From: a virus
Length of the DNA stretch: 64,000 nucleotides
Direction: 5' to 3' (one strand)
Virus record (IMG/VR): IMGVR_UViG_3300012347_000286
Span: 3,266-67,265 of that record
Of the stretch, positions 7,953 through 57,203 are shown piece by piece. Every line of letters starts with the position of its first letter. Position 1 is the first letter of the stretch. A model generated the notes under the pieces. The model was not told the DNA's origin. It did no database searches and saw nothing but the letters and a program-made list of their open reading frames with translations. Made by a program: the position numbers and the translations under genes.

Positions 7953-7990
7953 TAAAAGTCAACAAAAAGGTTGACTTTTATTCTTTTTGG
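7953..7990 (+). terminator. rho-independent terminator (10-bp perfect hairpin AAAAGTCAAC/GTTGACTTTT plus T-run) overlapping the next -35
   Basis: Inverted repeat at 7953-7962 and 7969-7978 is followed by TTATTCTTTTT. Confidence 0.6.
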
Positions 7991-7999
7991 TTGTATAAT
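7971..7999 (+). promoter_or_regulatory. sigma70-type promoter (TTGACT-17-TATAAT)
   Basis: -35 at 7971-7976 and -10 at 7994-7999, upstream of the 8034 start. Confidence 0.7.
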
Positions 8000-8033
8000 A
8001 GATTCATCTTGTAAGCAACTCAATGGAGTAAAA

Positions 8034-9362
8034 ATGGCAACAGTAGTAGCAACATCTAAATTGGCAAAAACAAAAGTAAAGCCAAAAGTTAATATCAAAA
8101 CAGCACGTAAGTCAACATTCGGGCTCACCTTTGATTATTTCAAACGTGACCCAAATGGTCGTCAAATTAATAACATCCTTGAACGTAAGCCCGGGCAGTA
8201 TGCACAAATCTCAATCGAAGATTTAGTTAACAAAGTTAACACTGGTGGCAACATTGATTTTATGTCAGCTCTTGAGCGTTATCAAAAGCTGGCAATTATG
8301 TTCGACCCAGCAAACTTCCCTGTGACTGGAATGGTCCTGCTAGGCGACTTGGCAAGTGACGAAGACATTCAGCGTGAGTTAGATGTGCCTCACGCTACGA
8401 ACATTTTTGCATACTTTGATGAACAACGTGTCCAGTCTATTCAGGCTGTGAAGACACCTGGCAAGCAAGAATATACAATGGTAAACGGACAACATACTGC
8501 AACTACCGTTGCGTTGATTGTTGCATCGGGTTTGATGAAGGGTTGGAAAGCTAAAGATTGGAAGAAGTTCCCAATCTTAGTTTCATACATTGAAACACTG
8601 GATCGTAGTAAAGCACGTGAAACGTTTGCTTTGTTGAACGGCGAAATGTCAAAAGACATTACAACTTTCGACCACTGGAAGCAACACTATTTGTCAGTTC
8701 GTTTAGATGGTAGCAAGAATCCAAAGTACTTGCACACTGCAAAACTGATTCAAATCTTAAAGACTTACGAATGCATTCCCTTACCAGAAGACCATGATGA
8801 TGCAGGTATGGCAGGTGCAGTTACTCACTTGAACGCTGTGGAAACAGCAGCCAAAGGTGGTGACTATGAGAAGTTAGAATTCATCTTTGCAAATCGTAAC
8901 AAGTTCTGGAACAGTCTCCCAGTTGATAACACTGAATTTGGTTTCTACGGTACTCTGTTAGATATCACTGAGGCAGAAAATATCTTGCGTAACTCGCAAG
9001 ATTTTGAAGAATTTGTCGAAGACATTCATGCAGTGGTGCAAAAAGTATTCTCGGGTATGCCTAAGCTGAAGGGCAGTGTTACCAAAGCGTACAAAAAGTA
9101 TCGCTATGACCAATTTGTTGATAAGAACGCAAGTGTCCCATTCAACGTTGCGCTGTATGTTACCTATAAAGTTTACAAGATGCTTGGTGGTACATTTGAT
9201 ATCGCTCCGCTGAATTCAATGTACGTTCACAACAAGGTTGATGTGTTGCACTACCTCACTGATGATGAACTTGCATTCATTAACAAACTGGTTCCTGCTA
9301 AGAGCAAACTCAAAGGCAAGAACGTAGTGATTCCAAAAGCTACTAAAAAGAAAGTAAAGTAA
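8034..9362 (+). CDS. DGQHR-domain (DndB/DpdB-like, ParB-fold) protein, divergent
   Basis: GGAG RBS. MVNGQHTATTVALIV resembles the DGQHR motif of DndB/DpdB. The first 21 codons of track ORF 7971.. lie inside the promoter. Confidence 0.5.
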   Translation: MATVVATSKLAKTKVKPKVNIKTARKSTFGLTFDYFKRDPNGRQINNILERKPGQYAQISIEDLVNKVNTGGNIDFMSALERYQKLAIMFDPANFPVTGMVLLGDLASDEDIQRELDVPHATNIFAYFDEQRVQSIQAVKTPGKQEYTMVNGQHTATTVALIVASGLMKGWKAKDWKKFPILVSYIETLDRSKARETFALLNGEMSKDITTFDHWKQHYLSVRLDGSKNPKYLHTAKLIQILKTYECIPLPEDHDDAGMAGAVTHLNAVETAAKGGDYEKLEFIFANRNKFWNSLPVDNTEFGFYGTLLDITEAENILRNSQDFEEFVEDIHAVVQKVFSGMPKLKGSVTKAYKKYRYDQFVDKNASVPFNVALYVTYKVYKMLGGTFDIAPLNSMYVHNKVDVLHYLTDDELAFINKLVPAKSKLKGKNVVIPKATKKKVK

Positions 9363-13778: not shown

Positions 13779-14090
13779 ATGTTTAACGTATTCGCATATT
13801 CCATGGTCGACACCATTCAGGAATCAAAAAAGAAGTTTGTCAACACAGTCATTACAAACCCAGAAATCAACACAGTTCTAAACTCATTCGTTGATTCTCA
13901 AGCCAAGTACACAAAGCAAGCTATTGACGCTGGCTCATTGGCATTCACTAAACTAGCTTCAATGGCAGTGGATAAGAAATTCTACACTGACGCAATGACA
14001 CCAGCAAAAGAAGCATTTGATAAAATGAAAGACGTTAGTTCTTTCTTCCCAACTGCTAGTTGCGCTAAGCCAGCAAAGAAGGCTAAGTAA
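13779..14090 (+). CDS. hypothetical protein (103 aa)
   Basis: CAGGAGAAAATTTATG RBS. Confidence 0.6.
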   Translation: MFNVFAYSMVDTIQESKKKFVNTVITNPEINTVLNSFVDSQAKYTKQAIDAGSLAFTKLASMAVDKKFYTDAMTPAKEAFDKMKDVSSFFPTASCAKPAKKAK

Positions 14091-14263
14091 TGTTTGGCGT
14101 TGTATTAGGTTTCATCCTATTAATCTCTATCTATCTTGCTGGAGCTTTTATTGCATTGTTACGTCAAAACGGATATCGCTTTGTTGAAACATGTAAAGAT
14201 GTAGTTGAAGCTATTCAGGACATCAAAAATTACAAAGCAAATCAAGGCACTAAAGGGTCATGA
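14090..14263 (+). CDS. small membrane protein (57 aa), not in the ORF track
   Basis: TAATG coupling. Hydrophobic N-terminus MFGVVLGFILLISIYLAGAFIALL. Confidence 0.45.
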   Translation: MFGVVLGFILLISIYLAGAFIALLRQNGYRFVETCKDVVEAIQDIKNYKANQGTKGS

Positions 14264-14838
14264 TTACATACGTCCACACTAACATCTATAAGATTAGTGA
14301 GTATGCTAGACATTTGAAGTCATTAGAAAGTGATGACCGTTATTCACGTTTCGGTCACCCTGCTAGTGACTACAATATCGACCAGCTTATCTTACAAATG
14401 TGTTATCACCCCAAAGACCATGAATTATGGTATGCACGTGATGATGAAAAGCGTGTTGGTTGGGGACATATGGCTAAGAATGACGATGGTTCTTGGGAAC
14501 TTGCAGTATCAGTGGATAAAGAGTTTCAGCGTCAAGGCATTGCAGATAAATTACTAACAGAAATGATTGAATGGGCTAAGTTCCATCATATCCCAGAAGT
14601 TTACATGCACTGCATTGAAAACAACAAAGTCATTCAACATCTTGCTACCAAGCATGAATTGAAACTTAAAGAACGAGGCGATGGTGAACGTACTGCGGCA
14701 ATCGAAGTACCAGAACCTAGCTTAGTAGAAGTGAGCAACCAGTTGTTCAAAGAGCAAACGGAGATTGTGCAAGAGATTACTAGACTACGAGGTAAACTCG
14801 CGGGTCTATGGTTGAATCCAAATCACCAAACTGATTGA
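14260..14838 (+). CDS. GNAT-family acetyltransferase-like protein
   Basis: VDKEFQRQGIADKLL matches the Q/RxxGxG/A acetyl-CoA binding motif. Confidence 0.6.
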   Translation: MITYVHTNIYKISEYARHLKSLESDDRYSRFGHPASDYNIDQLILQMCYHPKDHELWYARDDEKRVGWGHMAKNDDGSWELAVSVDKEFQRQGIADKLLTEMIEWAKFHHIPEVYMHCIENNKVIQHLATKHELKLKERGDGERTAAIEVPEPSLVEVSNQLFKEQTEIVQEITRLRGKLAGLWLNPNHQTD

Positions 14839-14882
14839 TTTTTCAATCACAAATAGACATAATACACACACAGGAGAATAAC

Positions 14883-15155
14883 ATGTCAAAATTCGAAACA
14901 CCAAAACTACCACAAGTAAAATTTAACAAAAACGGCTACGAGATTCGTGCCGACGTTCTAGCAATGGCTAAGGAAGTGGTCATGCAAGACTATCAAGTTA
15001 AGATGCATGGTTGGGAAATCACTGCCGGGCGTGACGAACGTACCGGTCAACTTACAACTACAGTAGCAATGCCAGAGTTTCCGGGCATGGACAAGATTCT
15101 AGAAGCCGCTGAAAAGATGTATGGCTTCGTCAATCAAGGATCTACTCAAAAGTAA
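14883..15155 (+). CDS. hypothetical protein (90 aa)
   Basis: CAGGAGAATAACATG RBS; the track ORF starts 16 codons earlier. Confidence 0.55.
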   Translation: MSKFETPKLPQVKFNKNGYEIRADVLAMAKEVVMQDYQVKMHGWEITAGRDERTGQLTTTVAMPEFPGMDKILEAAEKMYGFVNQGSTQK

Positions 15156-15170
15156 TACTTTTAGTTCTCA

Positions 15171-15200
15171 AAAAGGCTCCACTAGTTGGGGCTTTTTTTT
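15171..15200 (+). terminator. putative rho-independent terminator (GGCUCC..GGGGCU hairpin with G-U pairs plus T8)
   Basis: Hairpin followed by TTTTTTTT at 15193-15200. Confidence 0.5.
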
Positions 15201-15209
15201 GCCCAAAAG

Positions 15210-15238
15210 TTGACAATAAATGGGTAAAGTGATATACT
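15210..15238 (+). promoter_or_regulatory. sigma70 promoter (TTGACA-17-TATACT)
   Basis: -35 at 15210-15215 and -10 at 15233-15238. Confidence 0.65.
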
Positions 15239-15267
15239 ATGGGTAAGTTAAAGAAAAGGTGAACAAA

Positions 15268-15438
15268 ATGAATGTAGCAGATTTGATAGCATTGTTGAAC
15301 AATTTACCCGCTGATGCACCCGTAGTGCATCTAGGTCGTGACGATATGACATGCCCTGTGATATCTGTCCCTGATGTGTGTCTTGATGCTAGTGGACGAG
15401 TGGTTCTGTCTGGTGACTGGGCACCGATGAATTATTAA
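15268..15438 (+). CDS. hypothetical small protein (56 aa), not in the ORF track
   Basis: AAGGTGA RBS; placed between the promoter and the next gene. Confidence 0.45.
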   Translation: MNVADLIALLNNLPADAPVVHLGRDDMTCPVISVPDVCLDASGRVVLSGDWAPMNY

Positions 15439-15457
15439 GTTGTATAAGGAGAAAGAA

Positions 15458-15700
15458 ATGGACAAAGTTAAAATTACAGTTGGTGATATTGTATACTATC
15501 GTAGTAAGGCTGGAAACCAAGTTGTTTGTAAGGTTCGCAAAGTGAACCGAGTGAACTCCAAAGTAGAAATGCTGGCTGTGGGCGACCGAGTTGTACTACG
15601 TTATGATACAGTGGTGATACCAAAAATCAATTTGCGTAGGGCAACTCCTAGCATGATTGAATTGGTTTATGATTGCCACCTAGACCCTGCTATGTTCTAA
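15458..15700 (+). CDS. hypothetical small protein (80 aa); paralog of 16161..16391
   Basis: AAGGAGAAAGAAATG RBS. Shares the pattern GD.I.Y.S.AG..V..VR.V with 16161..16391. Confidence 0.55.
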   Translation: MDKVKITVGDIVYYRSKAGNQVVCKVRKVNRVNSKVEMLAVGDRVVLRYDTVVIPKINLRRATPSMIELVYDCHLDPAMF

Positions 15701-15705
15701 AACGG

Positions 15706-15734
15706 TTGACAATTAATCGTTTTGGGCATATAAT
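15706..15734 (+). promoter_or_regulatory. sigma70 promoter (TTGACA-17-TATAAT)
   Basis: Consensus hexamers with an A/T-tract spacer CGTTTTGGG. Confidence 0.7.
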
Positions 15735-15766
15735 ACATTCATAGTTTGAAACAAAGGAGCTTTAGC

Positions 15767-16102
15767 ATGATGAACGAAACTGAAACAAAACACAAATCAG
15801 CTGGTCAATTTGCTTGGTTCGCCGAGCGTGACGCACGTATGCGTAGTGCAGTAAATAGTTCTCTTTTTTCTGATGCCCAAAAGATTCGCGCAGAACGTGT
15901 GAAGCTGGGTCTTGAAATGGTGTTTAGTGCTGATAAAGTATACATCGAGTTTCGTAAGGGTTTCATTAGTGTTAAAGTTAACAAGCCAGAAGTGCGTGAC
16001 CGCAAGGGTCTTGCATTGTTAGAAATGTGTTACAAGAATGAGGGCTTTGAAAAGTGCAAAACTTCTCAGGGTTTCACTTATCGTTTGTTCAAAAAGGCTT
16101 GA
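15767..16102 (+). CDS. hypothetical protein (111 aa)
   Basis: AAAGGAG RBS before ATGATG. Confidence 0.55.
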   Translation: MMNETETKHKSAGQFAWFAERDARMRSAVNSSLFSDAQKIRAERVKLGLEMVFSADKVYIEFRKGFISVKVNKPEVRDRKGLALLEMCYKNEGFEKCKTSQGFTYRLFKKA

Positions 16103-16127
16103 CGATAAAACGTTTTGGGTATATAAT
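16099..16127 (+). promoter_or_regulatory. sigma70 promoter (TTGACG-17-TATAAT), a member of a 45-nt conserved promoter family
   Basis: GGCTTGACGATAAAACGTTTTGGGTATATAATATACACATAGACAG. Confidence 0.75.
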
Positions 16128-16160
16128 ATACACATAGACAGCAAACAACAGGAGTTGAAA

Positions 16161-16391
16161 ATGGAACTATCAGTTAAAGCAGGGGACAACATTCGTTATA
16201 CATCAGCCGCAGGCACACGAGTTGCTCAAGTTCGTAATGTCTCAATTAACCCAACTGCCCGCCCTGGACACTCTATTGCTTGGCTCAGTTTGTTCGTTCC
16301 AGCACAAAACGGTGGTAAATTTGATACTAATGTTACAATTCCCGCTGACGCAAGTTCTTTAAAAGCATTTAAAGTTGAGAAAATGGCTTGA
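16161..16391 (+). CDS. hypothetical small protein (76 aa); paralog of 15458..15700
   Basis: GGAG RBS. The track ORF 16038.. runs through the promoter. Confidence 0.55.
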   Translation: MELSVKAGDNIRYTSAAGTRVAQVRNVSINPTARPGHSIAWLSLFVPAQNGGKFDTNVTIPADASSLKAFKVEKMA

Positions 16392-16416
16392 CAATAAAAC
16401 GTTTTGGGTATATAAT
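16388..16416 (+). promoter_or_regulatory. sigma70 promoter, a near-identical copy of the 16099 element
   Basis: GGCTTGACAATAAAACGTTTTGGGTATATAATATACACATAGACAG. Confidence 0.75.
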
Positions 16417-16448
16417 ATACACATAGACAGTTAAGAAAAGGGCTCAAA

Positions 16449-16652
16449 ATGTCATTCGAAAAAGTTGTTCTCTCTCAAGTTGCTAAAGTTCTCGGTACTG
16501 ATAACCAAGCAAAATTTGAATACGGTACTCTCTTTGTTCAAGCTCCTGAACGTGATGCCCGTCGTGTCTTCTCTATGCTCTGCAAAGAATACAATTTCAA
16601 AGTTAGCCCAAGCAAAGTCGGTGACGAATTTGCTTACGATTTTATTGCTTGA
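16449..16652 (+). CDS. hypothetical small protein (67 aa)
   Basis: AAAAGGG RBS downstream of the promoter. Confidence 0.55.
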   Translation: MSFEKVVLSQVAKVLGTDNQAKFEYGTLFVQAPERDARRVFSMLCKEYNFKVSPSKVGDEFAYDFIA

Positions 16653-16677
16653 CAATAAAACGTTTTGGGTATATAAT
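16649..16677 (+). promoter_or_regulatory. sigma70 promoter (same family)
   Basis: TTGACAATAAAACGTTTTGGGTATATAAT. Confidence 0.75.
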
Positions 16678-16705
16678 AGAATCTTAAACAGTAAGAAAGA
16701 ACACA

Positions 16706-17005
16706 ATGACTCCATTGACTACACGCCAAAAAGCTCTGATTGTTTCTAACATTGTCAAAGCTGTAAAGAACATTGATAACCTCAACAAGACAGGTTACAA
16801 CTTCATCTACCAATGCTCGGGCTTTATTGCTCACTATGACATGTATGGTTTCATTGCAAGCTATTCAGGCGAATCATTGAAGCGTGATATCTTGTCTTAC
16901 GCAGGTCAAAATCAATGGAAAAACTTTCGCCCAGGCGAACGTGACTATGAATACTACAAAGCTAAGGCTGATGTGTATAACGAAATCGTTTCTCAAATCG
17001 TTTAA
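16706..17005 (+). CDS. hypothetical protein (99 aa)
   Basis: Track ORF after the promoter. Confidence 0.55.
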   Translation: MTPLTTRQKALIVSNIVKAVKNIDNLNKTGYNFIYQCSGFIAHYDMYGFIASYSGESLKRDILSYAGQNQWKNFRPGERDYEYYKAKADVYNEIVSQIV

Positions 17006-17014
17006 GGACTCAAA

Positions 17015-17143
17015 ATGAAAACATTTATTCTTGGTACAATCTTTGGTATCGTTGTTGCTACTGTTGGCTTCTCAGGCATTGCTCGTATGCTTGACAACGG
17101 TGTAGAGAAGACAAAAACAATCGCAGTGGAATCCGCAAAATGA
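17015..17143 (+). CDS. small hydrophobic peptide (42 aa), not in the ORF track
   Basis: AAGGA RBS; MKTFILGTIFGIVVATVGFSGIA is a single TM helix. Confidence 0.4.
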   Translation: MKTFILGTIFGIVVATVGFSGIARMLDNGVEKTKTIAVESAK

Positions 17144-17304
17144 CATTATTTGAAGTGATTGGTTTTCCAAAATCATGCCCATCTGAAACATTCAGCATTG
17201 GTACATATCAAACACTTGAGCGAGCCGAGGAAGTTAAGGCTAAGTCTTACACTGAATATTCTCGCTGTGAGTTTGAAATTGAAACAAAGTGGATGGAAGA
17301 ATGA
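17140..17304 (+). CDS. hypothetical small protein (54 aa), not in the ORF track
   Basis: ATGA coupling with the upstream peptide. Confidence 0.4.
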   Translation: MTLFEVIGFPKSCPSETFSIGTYQTLERAEEVKAKSYTEYSRCEFEIETKWMEE

Positions 17305-17669
17305 GAGTAAAAAACTGGATGATTGAAGTTAGCGTAATTGCACTAATGATTGGTGCAATAGTCGGTCTAGCTGGTTGCAATGAAAATCGTGACCGAACAG
17401 TAGGAGTTGCTGACTACGAACTCAAAGCGGAAGATTGTGTGGTCAAGTATATTGATAACCCTCGTGGTCACAACTTTTTCATCGCTAAGTGTCCGGCAGC
17501 AAGTGAGACAATTACTTACCAGCGACCGCAGGGCAAGGGTAGTGTGCCCACTGCTACAGTAATGACAAGCGAAACACTGCGTATGCAATTAGCTGAGGTT
17601 GAAGCTAAAGAAAAAGCATTGGCTAAGTTGTCAGTGCAAGAAAAAGTTTTGTTAGGCATCAAGGAGTAA
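17301..17669 (+). CDS. lipoprotein (lipobox LAGC)
   Basis: MRVKNWMIEVSVIALMIGAIVGLAGC signal/lipobox; the ATG overlaps the upstream stop. Confidence 0.55.
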   Translation: MRVKNWMIEVSVIALMIGAIVGLAGCNENRDRTVGVADYELKAEDCVVKYIDNPRGHNFFIAKCPAASETITYQRPQGKGSVPTATVMTSETLRMQLAEVEAKEKALAKLSVQEKVLLGIKE

Positions 17670-17672
17670 GTC

Positions 17673-17825
17673 ATGGATAAATGGATGAGTATTTGTTTAA
17701 TCTGTTTCGTGTTCGGTATGTTCAGCCCTGTAATTTTCATGGAGCGAGGAAAAACTGAATGCCGGGTAGAAGCTATCAAAGCACAAATGTCGGCTGACGA
17801 CATTATCAAACTGTGTGGTAAGTGA
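17673..17825 (+). CDS. small membrane protein (50 aa), not in the ORF track
   Basis: AAGGAG RBS at 17661-17666; hydrophobic N-terminus. Confidence 0.45.
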   Translation: MDKWMSICLICFVFGMFSPVIFMERGKTECRVEAIKAQMSADDIIKLCGK

Positions 17826-17857
17826 AATTTAAAAGAGCACAAGCGAGGGATAGAGTA

Positions 17858-18313
17858 ATGGGTCTAGACATGTACGCCTATGTTGGCAAGCCTGGTCAAC
17901 GTAGTGAATACTTTGAGCAAGATGGTCTTGAGTATGACGGTGTTAACCATGAGTGGGTAACACCTGTAGGTGGAGTGCAACCGGTTCATAAGTTAGCACA
18001 GTGGCGCAAGCATCCTAACTTACATGGCTGGATGGAACAACTTTGGATTCAGAAAGGTTGTCCCGGCATTGATTCTGAGTTTTACAAAGAAGAATATAGA
18101 CCTGACTTTAATGGCGTTGAGTTTGAACTAAGTTGGCAAGACTTAGACGACTTGGAACGTGCAGTACGTTCAGGTAACTTACCTGAAACTACCGGATTCT
18201 TCTTTGGTAATAATTCTGACAATGTATACTTTGACCAAGACTTGAAGTTTTGCATTGACGGTAAGGCAGAAATCTTCTTGGGTCAAAGAGTGTTCTACAA
18301 TTCAAGCTGGTGA
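17858..18313 (+). CDS. hypothetical protein (151 aa)
   Basis: GAGGGA RBS before the internal ATG of track ORF 17822... Confidence 0.55.
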   Translation: MGLDMYAYVGKPGQRSEYFEQDGLEYDGVNHEWVTPVGGVQPVHKLAQWRKHPNLHGWMEQLWIQKGCPGIDSEFYKEEYRPDFNGVEFELSWQDLDDLERAVRSGNLPETTGFFFGNNSDNVYFDQDLKFCIDGKAEIFLGQRVFYNSSW

Positions 18314-18528
18314 TGACCAAGTTACGTGTTGACATTCGTCCATACTTCCCTCGTATAGCTAACTACTATTGGGACAATATGGACCCAGCATCTGATGGCA
18401 GTATCTGGGTTTGGCTCAAGCGTGACTATGATATCGTCAAAATTGGGTCTATCGGGGATACTAAAGAACTATGGGTCAATTTTCCCGATGAAAAAACATT
18501 GATGTGGTTTAAGTTGAGGTGGTTATGA
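18310..18528 (+). CDS. hypothetical protein (72 aa)
   Basis: Track ORF, ATGA coupling. Confidence 0.5.
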   Translation: MMTKLRVDIRPYFPRIANYYWDNMDPASDGSIWVWLKRDYDIVKIGSIGDTKELWVNFPDEKTLMWFKLRWL

Positions 18529-18854
18529 GATTAATGTTAGGTACAAAAGAACGGCCCGAGTTACTTGTCAACGTCAAGCAAGAACACAGTCCTACTCATT
18601 TTGAATTTTGGGTAGTCAATGGTAATTGGGATGGCACATTCTATAACGGGTATGTCACTGTGCATCATCCTTATAACCCACATTCTAGTCTTGATAAGGT
18701 TGAAATACTCTGTGACAATCAAGACAGGTTACGTAGCAGTGACTGGAGTGGTGGCTATCAAGCAGTGTTTGATAACTTCCACAATGAAACGTATGTGGCA
18801 CCTAAGCCTAAGCCAGTAGTATATGACGATATGGATGACGATATCCCATTCTAA
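18519..18854 (+). CDS. hypothetical protein (111 aa)
   Basis: Track ORF. Confidence 0.5.
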   Translation: MVMRLMLGTKERPELLVNVKQEHSPTHFEFWVVNGNWDGTFYNGYVTVHHPYNPHSSLDKVEILCDNQDRLRSSDWSGGYQAVFDNFHNETYVAPKPKPVVYDDMDDDIPF

Positions 18855-18857
18855 GGC

Positions 18858-18886
18858 TTGACAATAAACCCATTTGGATGTATAAT
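18858..18886 (+). promoter_or_regulatory. sigma70 promoter (same family; TTGACA-17-TATAAT)
   Basis: GGCTTGACAATAAACCCATTTGGATGTATAATATACACATAGAT. Confidence 0.75.
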
Positions 18887-18913
18887 ATACACATAGATTA
18901 GATAGGAACACCC

Positions 18914-20251
18914 ATGACAGCAAGTTGGATTAACAAGTTAAACGAATCAGATAGTCGCCTTCACAAAGAAGACGTAGTAAAGCAAGCACTTGAGGCGTGT
19001 GTTCTAGGGAGTGTCAACGCACAGACTTTCTTAGGACTAGCTAAAGCAACTTATAATCCATATGTCACGTTCGGTGTCAAACAAATTCCAGATACAGTAG
19101 GTATCGTCGGCGCTGAGAACCCTTGGCAGGATTTCAACGAACTGTTGATTCAATTATCTCAGCGCCGACTTACTGGTCACGCGGCACGTGATGCTATTCA
19201 AAACATGGCTGAACGTTTTGACAGTGATGAATGGAATACATTCTGTGCGGCAGTACTGCGCCGAGACTTACGTGCAGGTATCTCTAGCACAACTATCAAC
19301 AAAATCTGTAAAAAGACTGATTGGGAAATTCCAGTGTTCGGTTGCCAACTAGCAACTAACAGTGAAGGTCGCCCTGAAATGAAGGGTATCAAACGACTTG
19401 AGCCTAAGTTAGATGGTGTGCGTATGTTGTTGATGGTCATCCCAAGTGATGATGGTGAAATCACTACAATCGCATTTAGCCGTAACGGCAAAACATTTGA
19501 TAACTTTGGTCATATCGAAGACCAAGTACGTGACAACTTTAACAAGTTGGTTCGCAAAGCCGCAACAAGTAACTTGAGCATGGGCTTTGTTATGGACGGT
19601 GAAGTGATTGGTAATAGCTTCCAAGAACTTATGCGACAAGCACGCCGCAAATCAGACGTTCAAGCTGAGGATTCAGTCTACAACGTGTTCGACATTATTC
19701 CTCTTGATGCCTTCCGTGAAGGTCATTGGAATGCTCAACTAGAAAAGCGTATCAAAATTCTTGACGACATGCGTCCAGTGTTTGATGACATGGCTAGTCT
19801 TGAATTGTTGCCACACATCATGGTTGACTTAGACACAGCAGCCGGTAAAGACCAGCTTGAGCGTTATGCACAAGATAATGTCAAGGCAGGCTTTGAAGGT
19901 ATTATGATTAAGGAAATGCAAGCTCCTTATATCTGCAAGCGTAGTACAGACTGGATGAAGTGGAAGCCAGTCATCACGGTAGATTTAGAAGTTATCGGCA
20001 TCGAAGAAGGCACCGGTCGTAACGCAGGTCGTTTGGGTGCATTAGTTTGTAATGGAGTAGATGATGGTAAGGAAATCACAGTCAATGTGGGTAGTGGTTT
20101 TAGTGACAGTGACCGAGATAACTATTGGCGTGATAGCAATTTCATCATTGGTCGAACTGCTGAGGTCATGTGTGATGTGATTACACAAAACCAAGATGGT
20201 ACTTACAGTTTGCGTTTCCCTCGCTTTGTTCGTTTCCGGGATGACAAATGA
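18914..20251 (+). CDS. ATP-dependent DNA ligase
   Basis: KLDGVR (motif I, adenylated Lys), EGIMIK (motif IV) and LRFPRFVRFRDDK (motif VI). Confidence 0.85.
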   Translation: MTASWINKLNESDSRLHKEDVVKQALEACVLGSVNAQTFLGLAKATYNPYVTFGVKQIPDTVGIVGAENPWQDFNELLIQLSQRRLTGHAARDAIQNMAERFDSDEWNTFCAAVLRRDLRAGISSTTINKICKKTDWEIPVFGCQLATNSEGRPEMKGIKRLEPKLDGVRMLLMVIPSDDGEITTIAFSRNGKTFDNFGHIEDQVRDNFNKLVRKAATSNLSMGFVMDGEVIGNSFQELMRQARRKSDVQAEDSVYNVFDIIPLDAFREGHWNAQLEKRIKILDDMRPVFDDMASLELLPHIMVDLDTAAGKDQLERYAQDNVKAGFEGIMIKEMQAPYICKRSTDWMKWKPVITVDLEVIGIEEGTGRNAGRLGALVCNGVDDGKEITVNVGSGFSDSDRDNYWRDSNFIIGRTAEVMCDVITQNQDGTYSLRFPRFVRFRDDK

Positions 20252-20493
20252 ACGACCGAGTTAATAACTTGATTGACCAGTCTGGTTTTGGCTCGTATGC
20301 TGAAATTTCAGACACTTACATTGTTCACAAAAATGATTTAGCGGAGTTCGCCGAGTTGATTGTAGAAGCAGTCTTGGATCAAGTTAAAGAACGTGCATAC
20401 TATACGGGTGACAGAGACTGGAGCGATGAAGTGGATCGCCCCTGGATTCAGTTAGAATTTGGGTACGGTCACTTAGCAGAGATGAAAAAATGA
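20248..20493 (+). CDS. hypothetical protein (81 aa)
   Basis: Track ORF. Confidence 0.5.
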   Translation: MNDRVNNLIDQSGFGSYAEISDTYIVHKNDLAEFAELIVEAVLDQVKERAYYTGDRDWSDEVDRPWIQLEFGYGHLAEMKK

Positions 20494-20657
20494 TTCCATA
20501 TACTGATTATGAGAAACTTGCCTTGCTTGAGGAAATTGAGCGGGGTGACAAAGTTGTTATCCCAACCAGCGTTGAACATGCTGAGTTTATGTTGATGGTG
20601 GCAAATGCCTATATCAACGAACACAAAAAAGAAATGCTTGACATTCTTAGGAGTTAA
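20490..20657 (+). CDS. hypothetical small protein (55 aa), not in the ORF track
   Basis: ATGA coupling. Confidence 0.4.
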   Translation: MIPYTDYEKLALLEEIERGDKVVIPTSVEHAEFMLMVANAYINEHKKEMLDILRS

Positions 20658-20812
20658 TGATGAACGATAAGAAACAAGAACTGTACACAGTGTATTGGAC
20701 ACAAGATTACCCACAATGGCAAGAAACACTTGACGAGTTGGATGAGCTTATGTTAGAATCTAGTGAGTACAAAGAAGCTAACGAGCTTATTAACCGAATC
20801 AAAGGAATATAA
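20657..20812 (+). CDS. hypothetical small protein (51 aa), not in the ORF track
   Basis: AGGAG RBS at about 20648. Confidence 0.4.
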   Translation: MMNDKKQELYTVYWTQDYPQWQETLDELDELMLESSEYKEANELINRIKGI

Positions 20813-21274: not shown

Positions 21275-21284
21275 ATATTATGTT

Positions 21285-32176: not shown

Positions 32177-34132
32177 TTGAAAATGAGCCACATATCACCG
32201 AACGTAATCAAGTTCCCCGTAACATCCAAGTCAATTGATTTGGCATTCATGCGTCCATTGCAAAAGAAATATTTGCATGACAATGTGTTTCAGTCCCTAG
32301 ACGAGTCTGAGAAACTGAATGACCATAGAATCACTATTGTGCCCGCAGGCACTGGTTCAGGTAAGTCTACTATCGTTACCAAAATCACGATTGCCTCAAT
32401 CATTAGTCGTGATCCAAATGCCAAGTGCATTATCTTTACTTCACCCGATAGCGGTTGTGTTGACGGACCTTTCTCGTCATTTGTTCGAGAGTGGAATGGA
32501 AAGAAGATTACCTGTGCTGACGGTTCAGTTAAAGAGATCCGTGCTAGACAAAAAGACGAAATCGTTAAGTCTTGGGCAGTTGGTGAAAAAACCTCCAATG
32601 ATGTAGTTGACGTTTGGTTTGTTACTACTCAATGGTTGGGCCTTAAGTGGAAAGAATATCGTAATCCCAATATCTTGCAAAAGAACATTGGCATTCCTGA
32701 CTATATCATCGTTGATGAAATTCACTTTGGAATGGGCACAATCAATGCTACTACGATTTTCGAGGACCAAGGGCGCAATAATAAAAACTTTGACCCTAAG
32801 TGGCTACCTACTATTTACGGTATGGCTGTCGCCGGATCACGAGTTATAGGTTATACCGGTACTGCTACCAAGAGTCAACGTGGTGGCACGGTGTTAGGTG
32901 CATCCGTGTTTAAGACTTTGGATCGCATGCCTGAAAGCAAGAATACTAGCGTCTTTGCTGAAACATTACCTATCGAGCCACTGGTAAATTCAGCATACAT
33001 TGTCCAAGATGTTAGTAACACTTACGAATTAGCAAAACTTCAATACGAACTAACAGTATCAAAGACTTTGCAATTCTTCAAGGACATCGACCAAGACACA
33101 TGGGTAAAAGCTGAAGCCATTGGTATTTCAAAATTGATGCCAGGTTCATTCTTTAAGTTCGGTCGCTGTGACGCTACTACATCAATTCCGTTAGAGCATG
33201 ATCCGATGAGTCGTGTCCGCAAAGGTCAAAAGAAAGACTTCTTGGACTATTCATCTGACATTGGCGCTGACTCCGGTATTGTGACAAGTGACCAAAAATC
33301 GTTTCACCCAAATAAAGGTGGTGTTAACTACCACTATACTGCCAACGACATTATCAATCGTGCGAATAGTTCAAGTGTGGCACAAAACCCACTTACACTT
33401 GGGGTAATCATGCAAGGTAACATGGGTTGGGATATCCCGCGATTGAAGCAAGTATCTTTCTTGGGTCACCCGAGTGCAAAAAATGTTCACTTGATGCAAC
33501 TACAAACAATGGCACGAGCAAAACGTTTAGTGCATGGTGTATATGAACATAATACAAAAGCAGTTGAGATTGCAGAACTCGATGTATCGATGCAACAAAA
33601 AGAATTGTTGGCAAGGTACGTAGTGTTCTCGAATACCGTGAATATTGTTGTTCCCAAGTATGCACATCTGCTGAAGTCTGCATACAGTGAGTTTAAACAA
33701 CACATGCACACTCCTGCAGAGGGTTTAGATTTGTATTTGAACATTATTAAAACTCATGTTCCTACAAAATCTAATGTTTCTAAAATGACAAAGCCTCACT
33801 TTCACATGGGGTATAATCCCGGTTCACAAAATCAAGCAAGCAAGAAAGATTATTGCCAGCACTGCACTGATTTAGGTTTAGTCACTGACAAAGGTGATAC
33901 TTTGTGTTCTATTATTGGACGTGTCCAGGCTAATGATATTGCCGAGCGTAGACTGTCTGATGAGGAGTTCAAAGAGTATTGGAAGGGACAGTTGAAGTTG
34001 GACCACTTGAACGGTGTTCGTACTGACAATCGTCCTGAAAATCAGTACACTCGCTGTGGCATCAGTGATGCGTTGAAAACCTTGATTAAGAAAGACTACT
34101 TGAACACCTACAAAAAGGTTGACGGTAAATAG
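32177..34132 (+). CDS. superfamily-2 DEAH-box helicase
   Basis: Walker A PAGTGSGKST, DEIH box (IIVDEIHFG) and further helicase motifs. Confidence 0.75.
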   Translation: MKMSHISPNVIKFPVTSKSIDLAFMRPLQKKYLHDNVFQSLDESEKLNDHRITIVPAGTGSGKSTIVTKITIASIISRDPNAKCIIFTSPDSGCVDGPFSSFVREWNGKKITCADGSVKEIRARQKDEIVKSWAVGEKTSNDVVDVWFVTTQWLGLKWKEYRNPNILQKNIGIPDYIIVDEIHFGMGTINATTIFEDQGRNNKNFDPKWLPTIYGMAVAGSRVIGYTGTATKSQRGGTVLGASVFKTLDRMPESKNTSVFAETLPIEPLVNSAYIVQDVSNTYELAKLQYELTVSKTLQFFKDIDQDTWVKAEAIGISKLMPGSFFKFGRCDATTSIPLEHDPMSRVRKGQKKDFLDYSSDIGADSGIVTSDQKSFHPNKGGVNYHYTANDIINRANSSSVAQNPLTLGVIMQGNMGWDIPRLKQVSFLGHPSAKNVHLMQLQTMARAKRLVHGVYEHNTKAVEIAELDVSMQQKELLARYVVFSNTVNIVVPKYAHLLKSAYSEFKQHMHTPAEGLDLYLNIIKTHVPTKSNVSKMTKPHFHMGYNPGSQNQASKKDYCQHCTDLGLVTDKGDTLCSIIGRVQANDIAERRLSDEEFKEYWKGQLKLDHLNGVRTDNRPENQYTRCGISDALKTLIKKDYLNTYKKVDGK

Positions 34133-34147
34133 ATTTGGATGTATAAT
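34119..34147 (+). promoter_or_regulatory. sigma70 promoter (TTGACG-17-TATAAT) overlapping the helicase 3' end
   Basis: GGTTGACGGTAAATAGATTTGGATGTATAAT. Confidence 0.7.
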
Positions 34148-34173
34148 AGAGACTTCTACAGCAAGGAGTCTCT

Positions 34174-34377
34174 ATGTCTTACATTCGATTCAATCACGAC
34201 CCAAAGTGGGGCCCTCGCAAAGGACTTGAGGGCCCATTCCATTATCCCTCAGGTGTAGTACTTTATTATGACCCAAAAGCAGGTGAGTACTACGATCCTA
34301 CTACTGACTTCTATGTTCCCCATGAAGACGTTGAGGAACTGAAAAACTCTATCTTCCAACTACTAAAAAAGGCTTGA
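34174..34377 (+). CDS. hypothetical small protein (67 aa)
   Basis: GGAG RBS. Confidence 0.5.
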   Translation: MSYIRFNHDPKWGPRKGLEGPFHYPSGVVLYYDPKAGEYYDPTTDFYVPHEDVEELKNSIFQLLKKA

Positions 34378-34402: not shown

Positions 34403-34434
34403 AGATACTTAGACAGTTAAGAAAAGGGCTCGAA

Positions 34435-34678: not shown

Positions 34679-34708
34679 AGAATCTTAAACAGTCAAAAGG
34701 AAGTCAAA

Positions 34709-51512: not shown

Positions 51513-51932
51513 TTAAGCTAAGATATATGGTTTGTTCCACTGACCGATGTTCACATCAACATACCAACCCACATCAAAGTAGTCAGTTTGGATGTCTGAA
51601 TTGTTGTGATTACCTTTGTTCATTTCGGCAAGAACTTCGGACAAGAATTCTTTTGCTTTACCTGAAAAGTGATCCTGATACCAGTATACATTCACATCCA
51701 ACGATTTGTTATTGCGGACGTACTCAATTTGGTCTTGAGACATTACGTTGTAATGTTTAGATCCGTTTGTACCGATATAATTTTCAATAAAGTCAATCGA
51801 ACCTGACTTAACATTCAGAACAAAAGTACTGTGATTGCGTACAGCAAGAGAACCCTTGACACCGTACTTTTTCAGGATAGCTTTGATAGCTGGGGCACGT
51901 TCAGATTTGCGTTCTTGATTGAAGTAAGCCAT
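51513..51932 (-). CDS. hypothetical protein (139 aa)
   Basis: AAGAGGA RBS downstream of a consensus promoter. Confidence 0.6.
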   Translation of the reverse strand: MAYFNQERKSERAPAIKAILKKYGVKGSLAVRNHSTFVLNVKSGSIDFIENYIGTNGSKHYNVMSQDQIEYVRNNKSLDVNVYWYQDHFSGKAKEFLSEVLAEMNKGNHNNSDIQTDYFDVGWYVDVNIGQWNKPYILA

Positions 51933-51964
51933 TTTCTAAGTCCTCTTTGTTGCTGTCTAAGTAT

Positions 51965-51993
51965 CTATTATATGCCCAAAACGATTAATTGTC
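51965..51993 (-). promoter_or_regulatory. sigma70 promoter (minus; TTGACA-17-TATAAT, TAGACAG box downstream)
   Basis: Reverse complement reads GGTTGACAATTAATCGTTTTGGGCATATAATAGATACTTAGACAG. Confidence 0.7.
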
Positions 51994-52000
51994 AACCTTT

Positions 52001-52135
52001 TTATTGGTGTAGACGGTCGATTTCTGCATCAATTTTAGCTTGGACTTGGGCGTTGCGCTCATACATAGCTTGGTACACCATGTAGCCAATGTAGATTACG
52101 CCAAAAGTCACTGCAACAATGTCAACTATATCCAT
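52001..52135 (-). CDS. small TM protein (44 aa), not in the ORF track
   Basis: AGGAAG RBS; MDIVDIVAVTFGVIYIGYMVY. Confidence 0.45.
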   Translation of the reverse strand: MDIVDIVAVTFGVIYIGYMVYQAMYERNAQVQAKIDAEIDRLHQ

Positions 52136-52169
52136 TTTTTACTTCCTGTGTTTTGCTGTCTAAGTATCT

Positions 52170-52198
52170 ATTATACAACCAAAACCATTATTTGTCAA
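52170..52198 (-). promoter_or_regulatory. sigma70 promoter (minus)
   Basis: Reverse complement reads GGTTGACAAATAATGGTTTTGGTTGTATAATAGATACTTAGACAG. Confidence 0.7.
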
Positions 52199-52203
52199 CC
52201 TTT

Positions 52204-52383
52204 TTACGAATTAATCGTTTCAAAAGGATTGAATACTTCAGTATTAGTTTCTGGTTCCATCAAATCTGAGGTTTCGTATACCCAAATGACGGGCACTTCG
52301 AGAAACTCAGCGATTCGCATGGGAGAATAACCCTGCTCCAACATTAATTCAATGTCGATGGATAGTTCGGACATTTTACTCAT
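52204..52383 (-). CDS. small HTH-like protein (59 aa), not in the ORF track
   Basis: TAATG coupling; LEQGYSPMRIAEFLEVP resembles a helix-turn-helix. Confidence 0.4.
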   Translation of the reverse strand: MSKMSELSIDIELMLEQGYSPMRIAEFLEVPVIWVYETSDLMEPETNTEVFNPFETINS

Positions 52384-55991: not shown

Positions 55992-57122
55992 TTAATCCCA
56001 GCTTGATGAAGAACTTGAATCACTAGAGCTAGATGAACTAGAGCTATCCGACCAGCTTGACGAGCTAGAAGATGAACTAGAGCTATCCGACCAGCTTGAG
56101 CTTGAGGACTTGCTTGGTGTGTCATCCCAGCTTGAGCTACGCGATGGGGTGCTTGGTGCGTCATCCCATGAGCTGGAGCGTGAACTAGAACTTGCGGGCA
56201 CTTCACGTTCAACAATACGTTCACGTTCCACAACTCGGGTAGTATCGTGATGCGAACCACTCAACATGTTACCAATCAACACACCAGTCAACATATCAGT
56301 GCCACTTGAGCTAGTATGCACAACAGTCGGGGCAGGCTGACTGAAAGTGTTTGCTGATGTACGATACATTCGTGCGCTTGCTTCTGCGGCATCTGCACGA
56401 GCTTGAGCAGCCAGTCGTTCACGGCGTTCTTCTGCTTCAAGGAAGAGTCGTTGCTTTTCTGCGGCTTCTTCTTTCACACGCTTAACTGTTTTCAACTTGT
56501 CAGGATTCTCTGGGTCGAAACGTTCGTGACCATAATTCTTATGTGACTTCAATGCAGCCTCTGCCGCCAATTCAGCCTTACGTTCTGCATCTTGCTTGGC
56601 AAGCATATCCATGTGTTGACGCTTACGTTCAGCTTCACGGTCTGCACGAGCTTTTTCCTCGATTGCTTTGAGTTCGGCTTCGTATTTTTCGTCAGCTTCT
56701 TTATTCTTACGATACACGGTATAGATAATGCCACCAACTGCAAACACAAACAGTACCAAGATAATGTTGCGTACAGTATGACTTTCCTCAATGGATTCAA
56801 TCTTTGCTACTTGCGGGGTAATTGCTTGTTTCAGTTTTTGCACTGAACCTTCAGGAGCAAAGTCAAGTGTTGGGTTAAGACCTGTTGCGATTGTCAGGGC
56901 TTTGTTTGCTTTTTCTAGATTGCCTAGACCTGCTTGTGCTTGCGCCATTGCGTAGAATGCTTTGGAACTCTTTGGATGATTCTGAATAATCACCTCAAGA
57001 CCTGATGCGGCTGCGGCATAGTTCTTTTGTTGAATGAGACCTTCGATTTGTTCAAACGTTGCTTCGGCTTGTGCGGCGATTGCCATCAAACCAAACATTA
57101 CTGCGACTAGAAACTTTTTCAT
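55992..57122 (-). CDS. secreted protein: signal peptide, TPR-like N-domain, charged coiled coil, Ser-rich repetitive C-terminal tail
   Basis: MKKFLVAVMFGLMAIAAQA signal; an EAERKRQ-type coiled coil; (S)nWDD(A/T)PS repeats. Confidence 0.65.
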   Translation of the reverse strand: MKKFLVAVMFGLMAIAAQAEATFEQIEGLIQQKNYAAAASGLEVIIQNHPKSSKAFYAMAQAQAGLGNLEKANKALTIATGLNPTLDFAPEGSVQKLKQAITPQVAKIESIEESHTVRNIILVLFVFAVGGIIYTVYRKNKEADEKYEAELKAIEEKARADREAERKRQHMDMLAKQDAERKAELAAEAALKSHKNYGHERFDPENPDKLKTVKRVKEEAAEKQRLFLEAEERRERLAAQARADAAEASARMYRTSANTFSQPAPTVVHTSSSGTDMLTGVLIGNMLSGSHHDTTRVVERERIVEREVPASSSSRSSSWDDAPSTPSRSSSWDDTPSKSSSSSWSDSSSSSSSSSSWSDSSSSSSSSDSSSSSSWD

Positions 57123-57148
57123 AGTTACCTCTGTGTTAATATGTGTCT

Positions 57149-57177
57149 ATTATATAGGAAAAGCGGTTTATTGTCAA
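57149..57177 (-). promoter_or_regulatory. sigma70 promoter (minus)
   Basis: Reverse complement reads GGTTGACAATAAACCGCTTTTCCTATATAAT. Confidence 0.7.
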
Positions 57178-57203
57178 CCGCTTTTCTTTGTGCTACTTGA
57201 GTA

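Follow-up and report, generated by a model that had tools for sequence, protein, structure and literature searches.

The early promoters of bacteriophage T5 (N25, H207 and the P25/26/28 type) are present in many near-identical copies per genome; their conservation begins in an A-rich tract upstream, includes the spacer, the -10 hexamer and the discriminator as well as the first ~10 bases of the transcript, and extends to the SD sequence. As annotated, they form an equally stereotyped family of the form TATAAT-ATATTC-ATAAATTGA-TGAGAGGA. The transcribed region is purine-rich on the non-template strand, and experiments on N25 have shown that this region determines productive output; replacement of positions +3 to +20 (N25antiDSR) lowered the amount of full-length RNA about 10-fold (PMC12464699). 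Efficient escape has been linked experimentally to purine-rich, YG-poor initial transcribed sequences (PMC12464699, PMC5961368), and YG steps in this region slow promoter escape (PMC5961368). T4-type phages contain mobile regulatory cassettes named PeSL (promoter-early stem-loop), in which an upstream stop codon, an A/T-rich tract, a sigma-70-like early promoter, an SD sequence and an ATG form one conserved unit (Arbiol 2010, PMC2839356; Comeau 2014, PMC4122927). Tandem PeSL copies are found around small genes without known relatives and lie where related genomes differ by insertion, deletion or replacement. The early promoters of T4 depend on host sigma-70, are reported to combine excellent matches to all recognition elements with extra consensus regions and precede many small early genes (PMC2988021). 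TGn and a -35 of GTTTAC or TTGACA-like sequence are usual in them, and their Alt-dependent stimulation is also known. In lambda PR', which combines a Q-binding element with a sigma-dependent promoter-proximal pause, the spacer and the first transcribed bases are conserved as well.

We analysed a stretch of 64,000 nucleotides (the window; positions 3,266 to 67,265 of IMG/VR record IMGVR_UViG_3300012347_000286) from a large uncultured phage that is unrelated to T5. No T4 core gene was found in the window, so the phage is at most a putative member of the T4 group. The window contains 27 near-consensus TTGACA-17-TATAAT promoters (at least 11 of 12 hexamer matches, spacer of 17 bp in all 27) compared to 2.2 in shuffled sequences, all on the same strand as the coding sequence of the gene behind them. 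A near-identical family with TTTGG in the spacer, here referred to as class A, accounts for 14 (13-14) of these promoters (Table 1). Eight class A copies have the [T/A]TA[G/A]ACAG box, and a ninth has TTCTACAG. The first-pass annotation had reported about 25 near-identical modules, a number that fits the near-consensus promoters as a whole but not the near-identical family or its boxed members; every site that it listed does hold a copy. A repeat finder detected a direct repeat of 62 nt in five copies between 15698 and 18911, and a weight matrix built from metagenomic copies only identified 14 sites in the window with scores of 14-75 bits, whereas the best site in shuffled sequence scored below 0. 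As claimed earlier, the copies lie directly ahead of genes, most of them short: an ATG follows at 20-35 nt in every window copy, and 10 of the 14 genes encode 44-141 amino acids. The repeats are probably strong host-type early promoters joined to a standard leader and ribosome-binding site. The module at 15698 opens an array of four cassettes, and behind the 99-aa gene of module 16641..16708 lie seven to eight overlapping small ORFs as far as 18854.

Table 1. Class A modules in the window. Sites marked (a) were listed in the first-pass annotation, which gave those on the minus strand by the left end of the -10 hexamer; (s), the stop codon of the upstream gene is the TGA within the -35.
Module	Strand	-35	-10	Box or start region	Bits	Gene behind module
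7963..8036	+	TTGACT 7971-7976	7994-7999	no box; leader ATCTTGTA...	18.5	ATG 8034, 442 aa, 8034-9362
15698..15769	+	15706-15711	15729-15734	no CAG box; start region ATAGTTTG	47.5	ATG 15767, 111 aa, 15767-16102
16091..16163	+	TTGACG 16099-16104 (a)(s)	16122-16127	ATAGACAG 16134-16141	64.2	ATG 16161, 76 aa
16380..16451	+	16388-16393 (a)(s)	16411-16416	ATAGACAG 16423-16430	70.7	ATG 16449, 67 aa
16641..16708	+	16649-16654 (a)(s)	16672-16677	TTAAACAG 16684-16691	68.9	ATG 16706, 99 aa
18850..18916	+	18858-18863 (a)	18881-18886	no CAG box; ATAGATTA 18893-18900	34.5	ATG 18914, ATP-dependent DNA ligase, 18914-20251
34111..34176	+	TTGACG 34119-34124	34142-34147	partial box TTCTACAG 34154-34161	37.4	ATG 34174, 67 aa
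34366..34437	+	34374-34379 (a)(s)	34397-34402	TTAGACAG 34409-34416	72.1	ATG 34435, 72 aa
34642..34711	+	34650-34655 (a)(s)	34673-34678	TTAAACAG 34685-34692	68.6	ATG 34709, 141 aa, phrog_1987 (unknown function)
51930..52003	-	51995-51990 (a)	51972-51967	TTAGACAG 51960-51953	75.0	ATG 51932, 139 aa, phrog_10415 (unknown function)
52133..52206	-	52198-52193 (a)	52175-52170	TTAGACAG 52163-52156	69.9	ATG 52135, 44 aa
53065..53138	-	53130-53125 (a)(s)	53107-53102	TTAGACAG 53095-53088	67.3	ATG 53067, 98 aa
53485..53548	-	53540-53535	53517-53512	no box; ATTGATTC	13.8	ATG 53487, 48 aa (ORF)
57120..57185 (diverged)	-	57177-57172	57154-57149	no box; TTTTC replaces TTTGG	24.0	ATG 57122, 376-aa TPR and Ser-rich protein

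The ~60-nt module was also found in more than 120 related uncultured viral contigs, the shared genes of which are only 65-80% identical and the GC content of which ranges from 0.34 to 0.50; it was found in none of the cultured phages, and 185,579 bacterial species genomes gave a single match. Because the copies are phylogenetically related, the counts overstate their independence. The order of elements is A-tract, -35, AATAAAT, TTTGG, -10, AGA..C, TTAnnCAGT, A-rich leader, SD and ATG. The general spacer is AATAAAT-nn(n)-TTTGG-nnn; the earlier description, an A-tract followed by CGTTTTGGG, applies to a few copies. That conservation goes past both hexamers and includes the spacer and the start of the transcript had been proposed and was indeed seen. 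In the columns left free by the search pattern, 177 distinct metagenomic copies have C at -1 (0.89), T at +1 (0.81), T at +2 (0.97), A at +3 (0.92) and CAG at +6 to +8 (0.75-0.82), then AA and AAAGGA, with almost no information in the flanks past about -41 and +31. The keeping of TA..CAGT rather than any purine-rich, YG-free sequence goes beyond known RNA polymerase contacts, and so do the invariant TTTGG (-20 to -16) and the AATAAAT after the -35.

Class A modules share with the T5 early promoters the sequence A.A.TC[A/T]TA[A/G]A right after TATAAT and a purine-rich non-template transcribed region, but there is no sequence homology beyond generic elements. T5 has a TTGCTT-type -35, often with TGn, and ATAAATTGA as its conserved transcribed motif, whereas class A has a perfect TTGACA, no TGn, the spacer elements TTTGG and AATAAAT, and TA..CAGT. 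The absence of TGn also distinguishes class A from the usual T4 early promoter. The unit organization resembles that of PeSL, but the defining stem-loop is missing from the class A window copies and is not enriched in the wider module set (13 of 251 compared to 12.8 in a permuted control), and the transcribed start region is conserved much more strongly than in PeSL. The class A modules are a new sequence family of an already known kind and provide no evidence for a novel signal in RNA binding or processing.

On balance, we consider it probable that each module is the complete head of an early expression cassette, in which the box is the start-site and escape part of the promoter, and that the copies serve as recombination junctions. 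In the 5' part, an A-rich tract precedes a perfect -35 of the host sigma-70 type, which a spacer of 17 bp separates from a perfect -10; the discriminator A-G-A follows, with its G two bases past the -10, and then a fixed start-site region C-[T/A]-T-A. The "TAGACAG box" is a purine-rich, YG-free initial transcribed sequence, and the 3' part comprises a short unstructured A-rich leader, the SD and an ATG 26-34 nt past the -10. Host RNA polymerase is expected to hold such consensus promoters very tightly, and we propose that exit from the promoter thereby becomes rate-limiting; the box would set the start site and, much as the T5 N25 downstream region does, let the polymerase leave without pauses or abortive transcripts, and translation initiation would be the task of the leader's 3' half. 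As judged from the sequence, host sigma-70 dependence and early timing of transcription are likewise predicted.

The position of the box fits a promoter element. In all eight boxed window copies its first base is the 7th past TATAAT. Counted from the canonical start, it therefore covers about +1 to +8 and not +8 to +14 as annotated before. The canonical +1 is a T in most copies, so the RNA may start two bases later, at A, in which case the box would span -2 to +6. The window and related loci together gave 253 distinct promoters, of which 152 have [TA]TAnnCAG; in 149 of the 152 it lies at offset 6 after TATAAT. The distance from box to SD is 15 nt in 124 of 145 cases, with further modes at 12 and 16, indicating that the box is coupled far more rigidly to the -10 than to the SD. 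This also bears on the reading of the box as mainly a translation signal, an enhancer or ribosome standby site that belongs to the ribosome-binding region and not to the promoter. The prevailing spacing of 15 nt, the A-rich unstructured leaders and the near-constant distance to the ATG would fit such a role, but the offset to the -10 is invariant where that to the SD is multimodal, module 16649 combines a box with a poor SD, and TTAA..AAAGG follows some window promoters of a second class, class B (TGn-TATACT; for example 15210 and 22861), that lack the box, so the two halves of the leader are separable. We regard a mainly translational box as very unlikely; within the leader, only the 3' half (TTAA..AAAGGA) is a plausible candidate for the translation enhancer suggested earlier.

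The composition of the transcribed region agrees with a function in promoter escape. Positions +1 to +20 of the eight boxed window copies are 70-80% purine and have zero YG steps, and in 160 distinct initial transcribed sequences 81 YG steps were observed compared to 137 ± 9 expected, a depletion of ~6 sd. The first-pass annotation had argued that conservation of the initial transcribed sequence suggests an additional function. The conservation is real, but the premise is too strong, since a conserved initial transcribed sequence is documented to act on promoter output by itself. The further suggestion of a site for an RNA-binding protein or RNase of the phage is not supported: the box lies at the start site, the leaders are unstructured (z-scores -1.0 to +1.0), an Rfam search matched no family, and TAGACAG outside the modules is at chance level (10 seen in total, 6 of them in modules, compared to 8.1 expected). 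Neither is an anti-termination (Q-type) site, as the -10-like sigma-dependent pause element TAnnnT, present in lambda PR', is absent from all eight boxed leaders. Moreover, lambda PR' is a single promoter before the late operon, whereas class A has dozens of copies before single small genes, and a scan of 14000-20500, spanning the array at 15.7-16.7 kb, found no plus-strand terminator-like site that would have to be read through.

What survives of these suggestions is the idea that TA..CAGT in the start region, perhaps with the spacer TTTGG, is recognized by a clade-specific phage factor. Such a factor might switch the whole early class off or on, as a repressor that binds DNA or as a modifier of RNA polymerase, or it might be a protein or RNase reading the 5' ends of early mRNAs. 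Conservation is bipartite, with TA and CAGT kept and the two middle bases varying (GA, AA, TT, AT), which is not predicted by a constraint on composition only, and neither TTTGG nor AATAAAT is among the standard contacts of sigma-70. Of the TTTGG promoters, 59% have the box, compared to 16% of the other consensus promoters on the same contigs; about half of these others carry the extended -10 TGn instead. The box marks one class, before small genes annotated without function, whereas class B precedes larger enzyme genes, a division that would suit class-specific timing. The near absence of the module from bacterial species genomes indicates that it is not simply the promoter style of the host. 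However, the box has no dyad symmetry, the leaders no RNA structure and the motif no occurrences away from promoters above chance; the box is locked to the -10, no candidate factor was found in the window, and T5 is conserved in a similar way with a transcribed region that acts on promoter output itself. A dedicated factor is therefore rather unlikely.

Comparison of the window with related contigs supports the proposed role of the modules as recombination junctions. Seven of 11 synteny breaks fall at promoters, with edges of homology at the -35 (examples are contigs L082, L007/L010, L015, L101, L096 and L080), although breakpoints at gene starts would meet promoters to some degree through geometry alone. 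The module at 34111..34176 is the breakpoint with both L096 and L080. At least two different following families were found for 9 of 11 cassette gene families, and cassette genes have no known function. Seven ligase orthologs in related contigs were compared: that of L082 is preceded by a class A module resembling the one in the window, another by a class B promoter and the remaining five by neither. The ends of the cassettes are placed such that the -35 hexamer often provides the stop codon of the preceding gene; the TGA in TTGACA ends the upstream ORF in 102 of 247 modules. Module 16388 is a mosaic, its promoter half being as in 16099 and its leader half as in 34374, and modules within a contig differ at 17.6 positions compared to 22.2 between contigs (0 of 1000 permutations as low). 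These observations bear out the earlier suggestion of recent duplication or concerted evolution, although copies 16099 and 16388 are not identical over more than 44 nt as reported: they differ by one mismatch (TTGACG and TTGACA) and their longest exact run is 37 nt. The sequence comparisons indicate that recombination among related phages uses the ~60-bp near-identical copies as junctions, where it duplicates, removes and shuffles small-gene cassettes, and that it also homogenises the copies. In this respect the modules act like PeSL cassettes that have no stem-loop.

The same data could mean that the box has no function of its own and travels with the ~60-bp module as a whole, while duplication, gene conversion and cassette exchange among co-infecting relatives copy and homogenise the module. 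The mosaic modules, the near-identity of the neighbours 16099 and 16388, the greater likeness within contigs, and the breakpoints and shuffled cassette order at modules would all be expected. A good box is absent from 6 of 14 window copies, that of the ligase included, and is therefore not needed for persistence of the module, and the conservation of orthologous modules exceeds that of adjacent coding DNA only slightly (82% compared to 76%). Against this, the same bases are kept over more than 120 diverged contigs, positions within and around the box vary freely while the box bases stay, and the purine richness and YG depletion are directional, which drift plus conversion does not predict. We consider a functionless box improbable and favour a start-site and escape function. 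In the diverged module at 57120..57185, a hairpin (AGCGGTT...AACCGCT) surrounds the -35.

The window contains 27 near-consensus TTGACA-17-TATAAT promoters, defined as matching at least 11 of the 12 hexamer positions, compared to 2.2 in shuffled sequences. All 27 have a spacer of exactly 17 bp and are located on the coding strand of the gene downstream. The first-pass annotation had described about 25 near-identical promoter modules; the family is real and a copy is present at each coordinate listed for it, but the number was an over-count that fits the complete set of 27 near-consensus promoters instead. The family itself, referred to here as class A (copies are named by the start of their -35), consists of 13 copies and a diverged copy (57177, minus strand), with TTTGG at -20 to -16 and a perfect TATAAT that is usually followed by A-G-A. 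A weight matrix trained on metagenomic copies only identified 14 sites in the window with scores of 14-75 bits; shuffled sequence never scored above 0. TATAAT and the 17-bp spacer are found in all 14 modules, with TTGACA in 11 and a single -35 mismatch in three, and all modules show the -35/-10 hexamers and the spacing (17 ± 1 bp) of sigma-70 promoters. A repeat finder detected a 62-nt direct repeat with five copies in 15698-18911. The copies at 16099 and 16388, previously reported as identical over more than 44 nt, differ at one base and share an exact run of 37 nt.

A second group of promoters, class B, carries TGn immediately 5' of TATACT or TATAAT and has no TTTGG. Class B has its -35 in common with class A and lacks the box described below; some copies also have the AATAAAT start of the spacer, and the A-rich TTAA..AAAGG half of the leader is found in some class B promoters of the window. 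The genes behind class B promoters are larger and encode enzymes (UvdE, a helicase-like protein, a phosphoesterase, NadV and NMNAT), and class B may represent a separate timing class.

The box [T/A]TA[G/A]ACAG is present in only eight class A copies of the window. It had been placed at +8 to +14, which is about seven bases too far downstream. Its first base is the seventh after TATAAT and coincides with the canonical +1, so the box covers +1 to +8, or -2 to +6 if the RNA begins at the A of TTA. Among the matches listed, 152 promoters have the looser form [TA]TAnnCAG, and in 149 of them it is found at offset 6 from TATAAT; the distance from the box to the Shine-Dalgarno (SD) sequence is 15 for 124 copies, 12 for 13 and 16 for 7. 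The box is thus linked rigidly to the -10 and less rigidly to the SD. It occurs in 59% of class A promoters compared to 16% of the other consensus promoters in the same contigs (among the matches listed).

The earlier proposal that the conserved start region has an additional function is partly supported, and the RNA-binding or processing signal suggested for it was not supported. Outside the modules the box occurs at chance frequency, and a free-standing processing site was dropped for this reason. An RNA motif or hairpin was dropped because the folds of the 50-nt leaders are no more stable than those of their shuffles (z-scores of -1.0 to +1.0, minimum free energies of -0.6 to -4.7 kcal/mol) and the whole window gave no Rfam match at the gathering threshold. 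A Q-type antitermination promoter such as lambda PR' was rejected because the pause element is missing: the -10-like TAnnnT, an element able to hold sigma-70 for a Q-type factor, is absent from the leaders of all eight box copies. A reading in which TAGACA would be another -35, paired with GAAAAT as the -10, was also rejected, since the RNA would then begin within the ORF and the AAAATG context fits better with A-rich start-codon surroundings.

The pattern used to search for further copies (TTGACR-N9-TTTGG-N3-TATAATAKA) ends three bases past the -10, and positions -1 to +3, +6 to +9 and +11/+12 are conserved outside it. In 177 distinct copies among the matches listed, the column frequencies are 0.89 for C(-1), 0.81 for T(+1), 0.97 for T(+2), 0.92 for A(+3) and 0.75-0.82 for CAG (+6 to +8), followed by AA and an AAAGGA SD; beyond about -41 and +31 there is almost zero information. 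Orthologous modules are 82% conserved compared to 76% for the adjoining coding DNA. This excess is modest and calls for caution in judging how strong selection is, and the idea that the modules are much more strongly conserved than coding DNA was dropped.

The composition of the start region is directional. In the eight box copies the non-template strand from +1 to +20 is 70-80% purine and has no YG steps, and in 160 distinct sequences among the matches listed 81 YG steps were observed compared to 137 ± 9 expected. The simplest reading of these sequence features is that the box would comprise the start site and the initial transcribed bases of an early promoter that is very strong and limited by escape, and that the remainder of the leader would act as a standard unstructured ribosome-binding region. 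Dependence on host sigma-70, early timing and the start site are likewise predictions from sequence. A G two bases past the -10 has been reported to stabilise open complexes via sigma region 1.2, and this G is present in the module (TATAAT-A-G-A); preferred start sites are marked by a pyrimidine-purine step. The purine richness and YG scarcity of the box copies are properties that experiments have tied to easy promoter escape. When +3 to +20 of the phage T5 early promoter N25 were exchanged for a pyrimidine-rich "anti" sequence, full-length RNA fell about 10-fold (PMC12464699), and YG steps near +6 slow escape (PMC5961368). The annotated T5 early promoters constitute a family of this kind, with a conserved upstream A-tract, spacer, -10, ATATTC, ATAAATTGA and SD, and have A.A.TC[A/T]TA[A/G]A after the -10 in common with the module. 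Both features of the T5 type, a conserved region from +1 to about +20 and a purine-rich, YG-free transcribed region, are found in the module. T4 early promoters have also been described with an extra consensus (PMC2988021).

Known contacts leave the invariant TTTGG (-20 to -16) and the AATAAAT after the -35 unexplained, as well as the specificity for TA..CAGT rather than for any purine-rich sequence. A factor specific to the clade could recognise TA-NN-CAGT and TTTGG as the common mark of an entire temporal class, acting on the DNA or on the 5' end of the mRNA to raise or switch off expression of all immediate-early cassettes together. We consider such a factor unlikely; if true, it would mean a phage-specific promoter element on top of a perfect host promoter. 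TTTGG and TA..CAGT are concrete targets for testing phage-specific control. The modules amount to several hundred natural variants of a single very strong promoter and leader; such a library could be used to study how the start region and the first transcribed bases tune promoter escape, or as a source of parts for expression design.

Class A modules form tandem arrays at 15.7-16.7, 34.1-34.7 and 52.0-53.5 kb. The genes behind the array modules encode products of 44-141 amino acids without known function or functional annotation and directly adjoin the next module. In six window copies the TGA within TTGACA is the stop codon of the upstream ORF, and the same holds for 102 of the 247 distinct modules among the matches listed (upstream ORFs of at least 40 codons); in about 70 more of the 247 the stop is 3-8 nt upstream. 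Because the -35 hexamer supplies the stop codon, many cassette proteins end in ...K-K-A, ...K-M-A or ...Q-M-A. The cassette unit is unusually tidy: the -35 provides the stop of the preceding gene and the module finishes at the next ATG. After the gene at 16706, about eight small overlapping ORFs (42-163 amino acids; 17015-18854, plus strand) follow without a promoter of their own; they presumably form one operon that is transcribed from the 16649 module as far as the ligase promoter.

Positions of promoters and genes in the window and of repeated promoters in a cultured phage
Feature	Strand	Positions
-35 TGA used as stop codon of the upstream ORF	+	16100-16102, 16389-16391, 16650-16652, 34375-34377, 34651-34653
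-35 TGA used as stop codon of the upstream ORF	-	53127-53129
Class B-type promoters	+	1435, 6465, 15210, 22861, 32124, 37198
Class B-type promoters	-	51336, 53726, 60804, 63434
ClpX-like ATPase and full-length DnaK		24533-25732 and 26057-27937
Promoter copies of Methylophilales phage Melnitz-3		L123 2939, 3447, 4028 and others

Comparison with loci from related contigs (L-numbers) showed that 7 of the 11 synteny breaks are at promoters, with the edges of homology at the -35. An ATPase gene is joined to different cassettes in L082 and L007/L010, the 15.7-kb cassette is located within the 52-kb array in L101, and L096 lacks the 2-kb gene 32177-34132, the gap lying exactly between the promoters at 32124 and 34119. 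For nine of 11 cassette gene families, the genes that follow belong to two or more different families. Among seven ligase orthologs in related contigs, one has a class A promoter like that of the window (L082), one has a class B promoter and five have none. Copy 16388 is a mosaic of a promoter half of the 16099 type and a leader half of the 34374 type, and modules are more similar within a contig than between contigs. Pure hitch-hiking of the box through such recombination seems improbable and fits poorly with the directional composition of the start region and with its conservation among contigs that differ in GC.

This organization resembles the promoter-early stem-loop (PeSL) cassettes of T4-type phages, in which flanking copies recombine and genes are thereby excised as mini-circles (PMC2839356, PMC4122927). 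The modules share with PeSL a sigma-70-like promoter, an SD and start codon on the 3' side and the stop codon of the upstream gene on the 5' side, as well as clustering in variable regions with small genes of unknown function and indels or replacements between relatives. In contrast, the defining stem-loop of PeSL is not present, and the modules were therefore classed as working like PeSL and not as PeSL members. Promoter-bounded cassettes, described for a small number of cultured T4-type coliphages and vibriophages, are thereby extended to a clade of large environmental phages that is very abundant.

A megablast search with positions 15000-22000 against 50,697 cultured or deposited phage genomes gave no match, and an exact 46-mer from the window had no match in IMG/VR. 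The window has a GC content of 41%, no tRNA genes and no T4 core genes; one cassette protein has homologs in T4-related phages such as phiM12, Atu_ph07 and Melnitz. It codes for an ATP-dependent DNA ligase, a DnaK with about 68% identity to proteobacterial DnaK, a ClpX-like ATPase, UvdE, a 5'-3' exonuclease, sugar-modifying enzymes, an SPFH protein, NadV and an NMNAT/Nudix protein, and many ORFs have no family match. An identical DnaK was found on a 67-kb JGI metagenome contig and relatives with 82-95% identity abound in metagenomes, where their contigs reach 364 kb, indicating that the window belongs to an abundant, uncultured clade of large phages. The product of 55992-57122 (minus strand) is a protein of 376 amino acids that has a signal-like segment at its N-terminus, a TPR-like region and a charged coiled region; its long C-terminal tail is nearly all serine and contains SSW(D/S)D repeats.

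The module pattern was found in at least 120 IMG/VR stretches. Among the matches listed, the stretches have a GC of 0.27-0.50 (mostly 0.34-0.50) on contigs of up to 359 kb, and the majority of the contigs come from relatives of the window phage, with shared genes at 65-90% nucleotide identity. The module is absent from cultured phages and essentially absent from bacterial genomes. A blastn search of the phage collection with the consensus module yielded weak generic promoter matches in Bacillus phages and nothing else, and a scan of 185,579 bacterial species genomes yielded one match and no clue to the host. This match to TTTGG...TATAAT...TAGACAG (TTGACTTTTTTTCCTTTTGGGAATATAATATAACCATAGACAGCAAAGG; L122 1431-1458, contig CAMDZD010000006.1 of a Clostridia metagenome-assembled genome) does not resemble the window elsewhere and is probably a chance likeness to a strong Gram-positive-type promoter. 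Longer, module-specific strings were absent from the searchable literature, and none of the papers listed dealt with phage promoters. The sequence family is new; phage early promoter-leader cassettes that conserve the start region are already known as a kind, and what stands out is the breadth of the family in uncultured large phages and the tidiness of the cassette boundaries. In metagenomic phage contigs, the module could serve as a simple sequence tag with which to find early genes, probably ones involved in host takeover.

Contigs with TTGAC-N9-TTTGG also carry other stereotyped promoter sub-families, found in L077, L088, L090 and L102 (e.g., AACCCTACGGTTGACAGGGTTTCTTTTTGG) and in L009, L026, L029, L032 and L035 (TGaTACAATACTTGTATTGA). 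One sub-family has a terminator-like hairpin around the -35, the T-run of which is the spacer, and another has an inverted repeat across the -10 and the first transcribed bases. In the cultured, T4-related Melnitz-3 (L123), which infects a marine methylotroph, a promoter family of its own (GCCTTGAC...TGGTATAATAG) is repeated, and one of the copies is immediately 5' of the homolog of window gene 51513-51932.

In the 45 nt 5' of the class A copies of the window no significant hairpin was detected. Stems of at least 6 bp around the -35 were found in 13 of 251 copies among the matches listed, compared to 12.8 in the permuted control, and a stem-loop of upstream CCAAAA and spacer TTTTGG, convincing at first in a few contigs, was dropped as it did not exceed this control. 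Two modules are exceptions: 57177 has AGCGGTT-GACAATA-AACCGCT followed by TTTT around its -35 (57150-57185, minus strand), and L082 has a clean intrinsic terminator (AAAAGAGCACTTCGGTGCTCTTTTTTT; 1180-1207) immediately 5' of the -35. The class B promoter with its -35 at 51336 contains a perfect 13-bp inverted repeat (TTGACAGTTACTA / TAGTAACTGTCAA; 51296-51336, minus strand), one arm of which is the -35 hexamer plus 7 bases and the other the first bases after TGTTATAAT. In the L033 ortholog both arms are changed and pairing is kept (GTTATTA...TAATAAC). The repeat suggests an operator, or a hairpin across the entire promoter.
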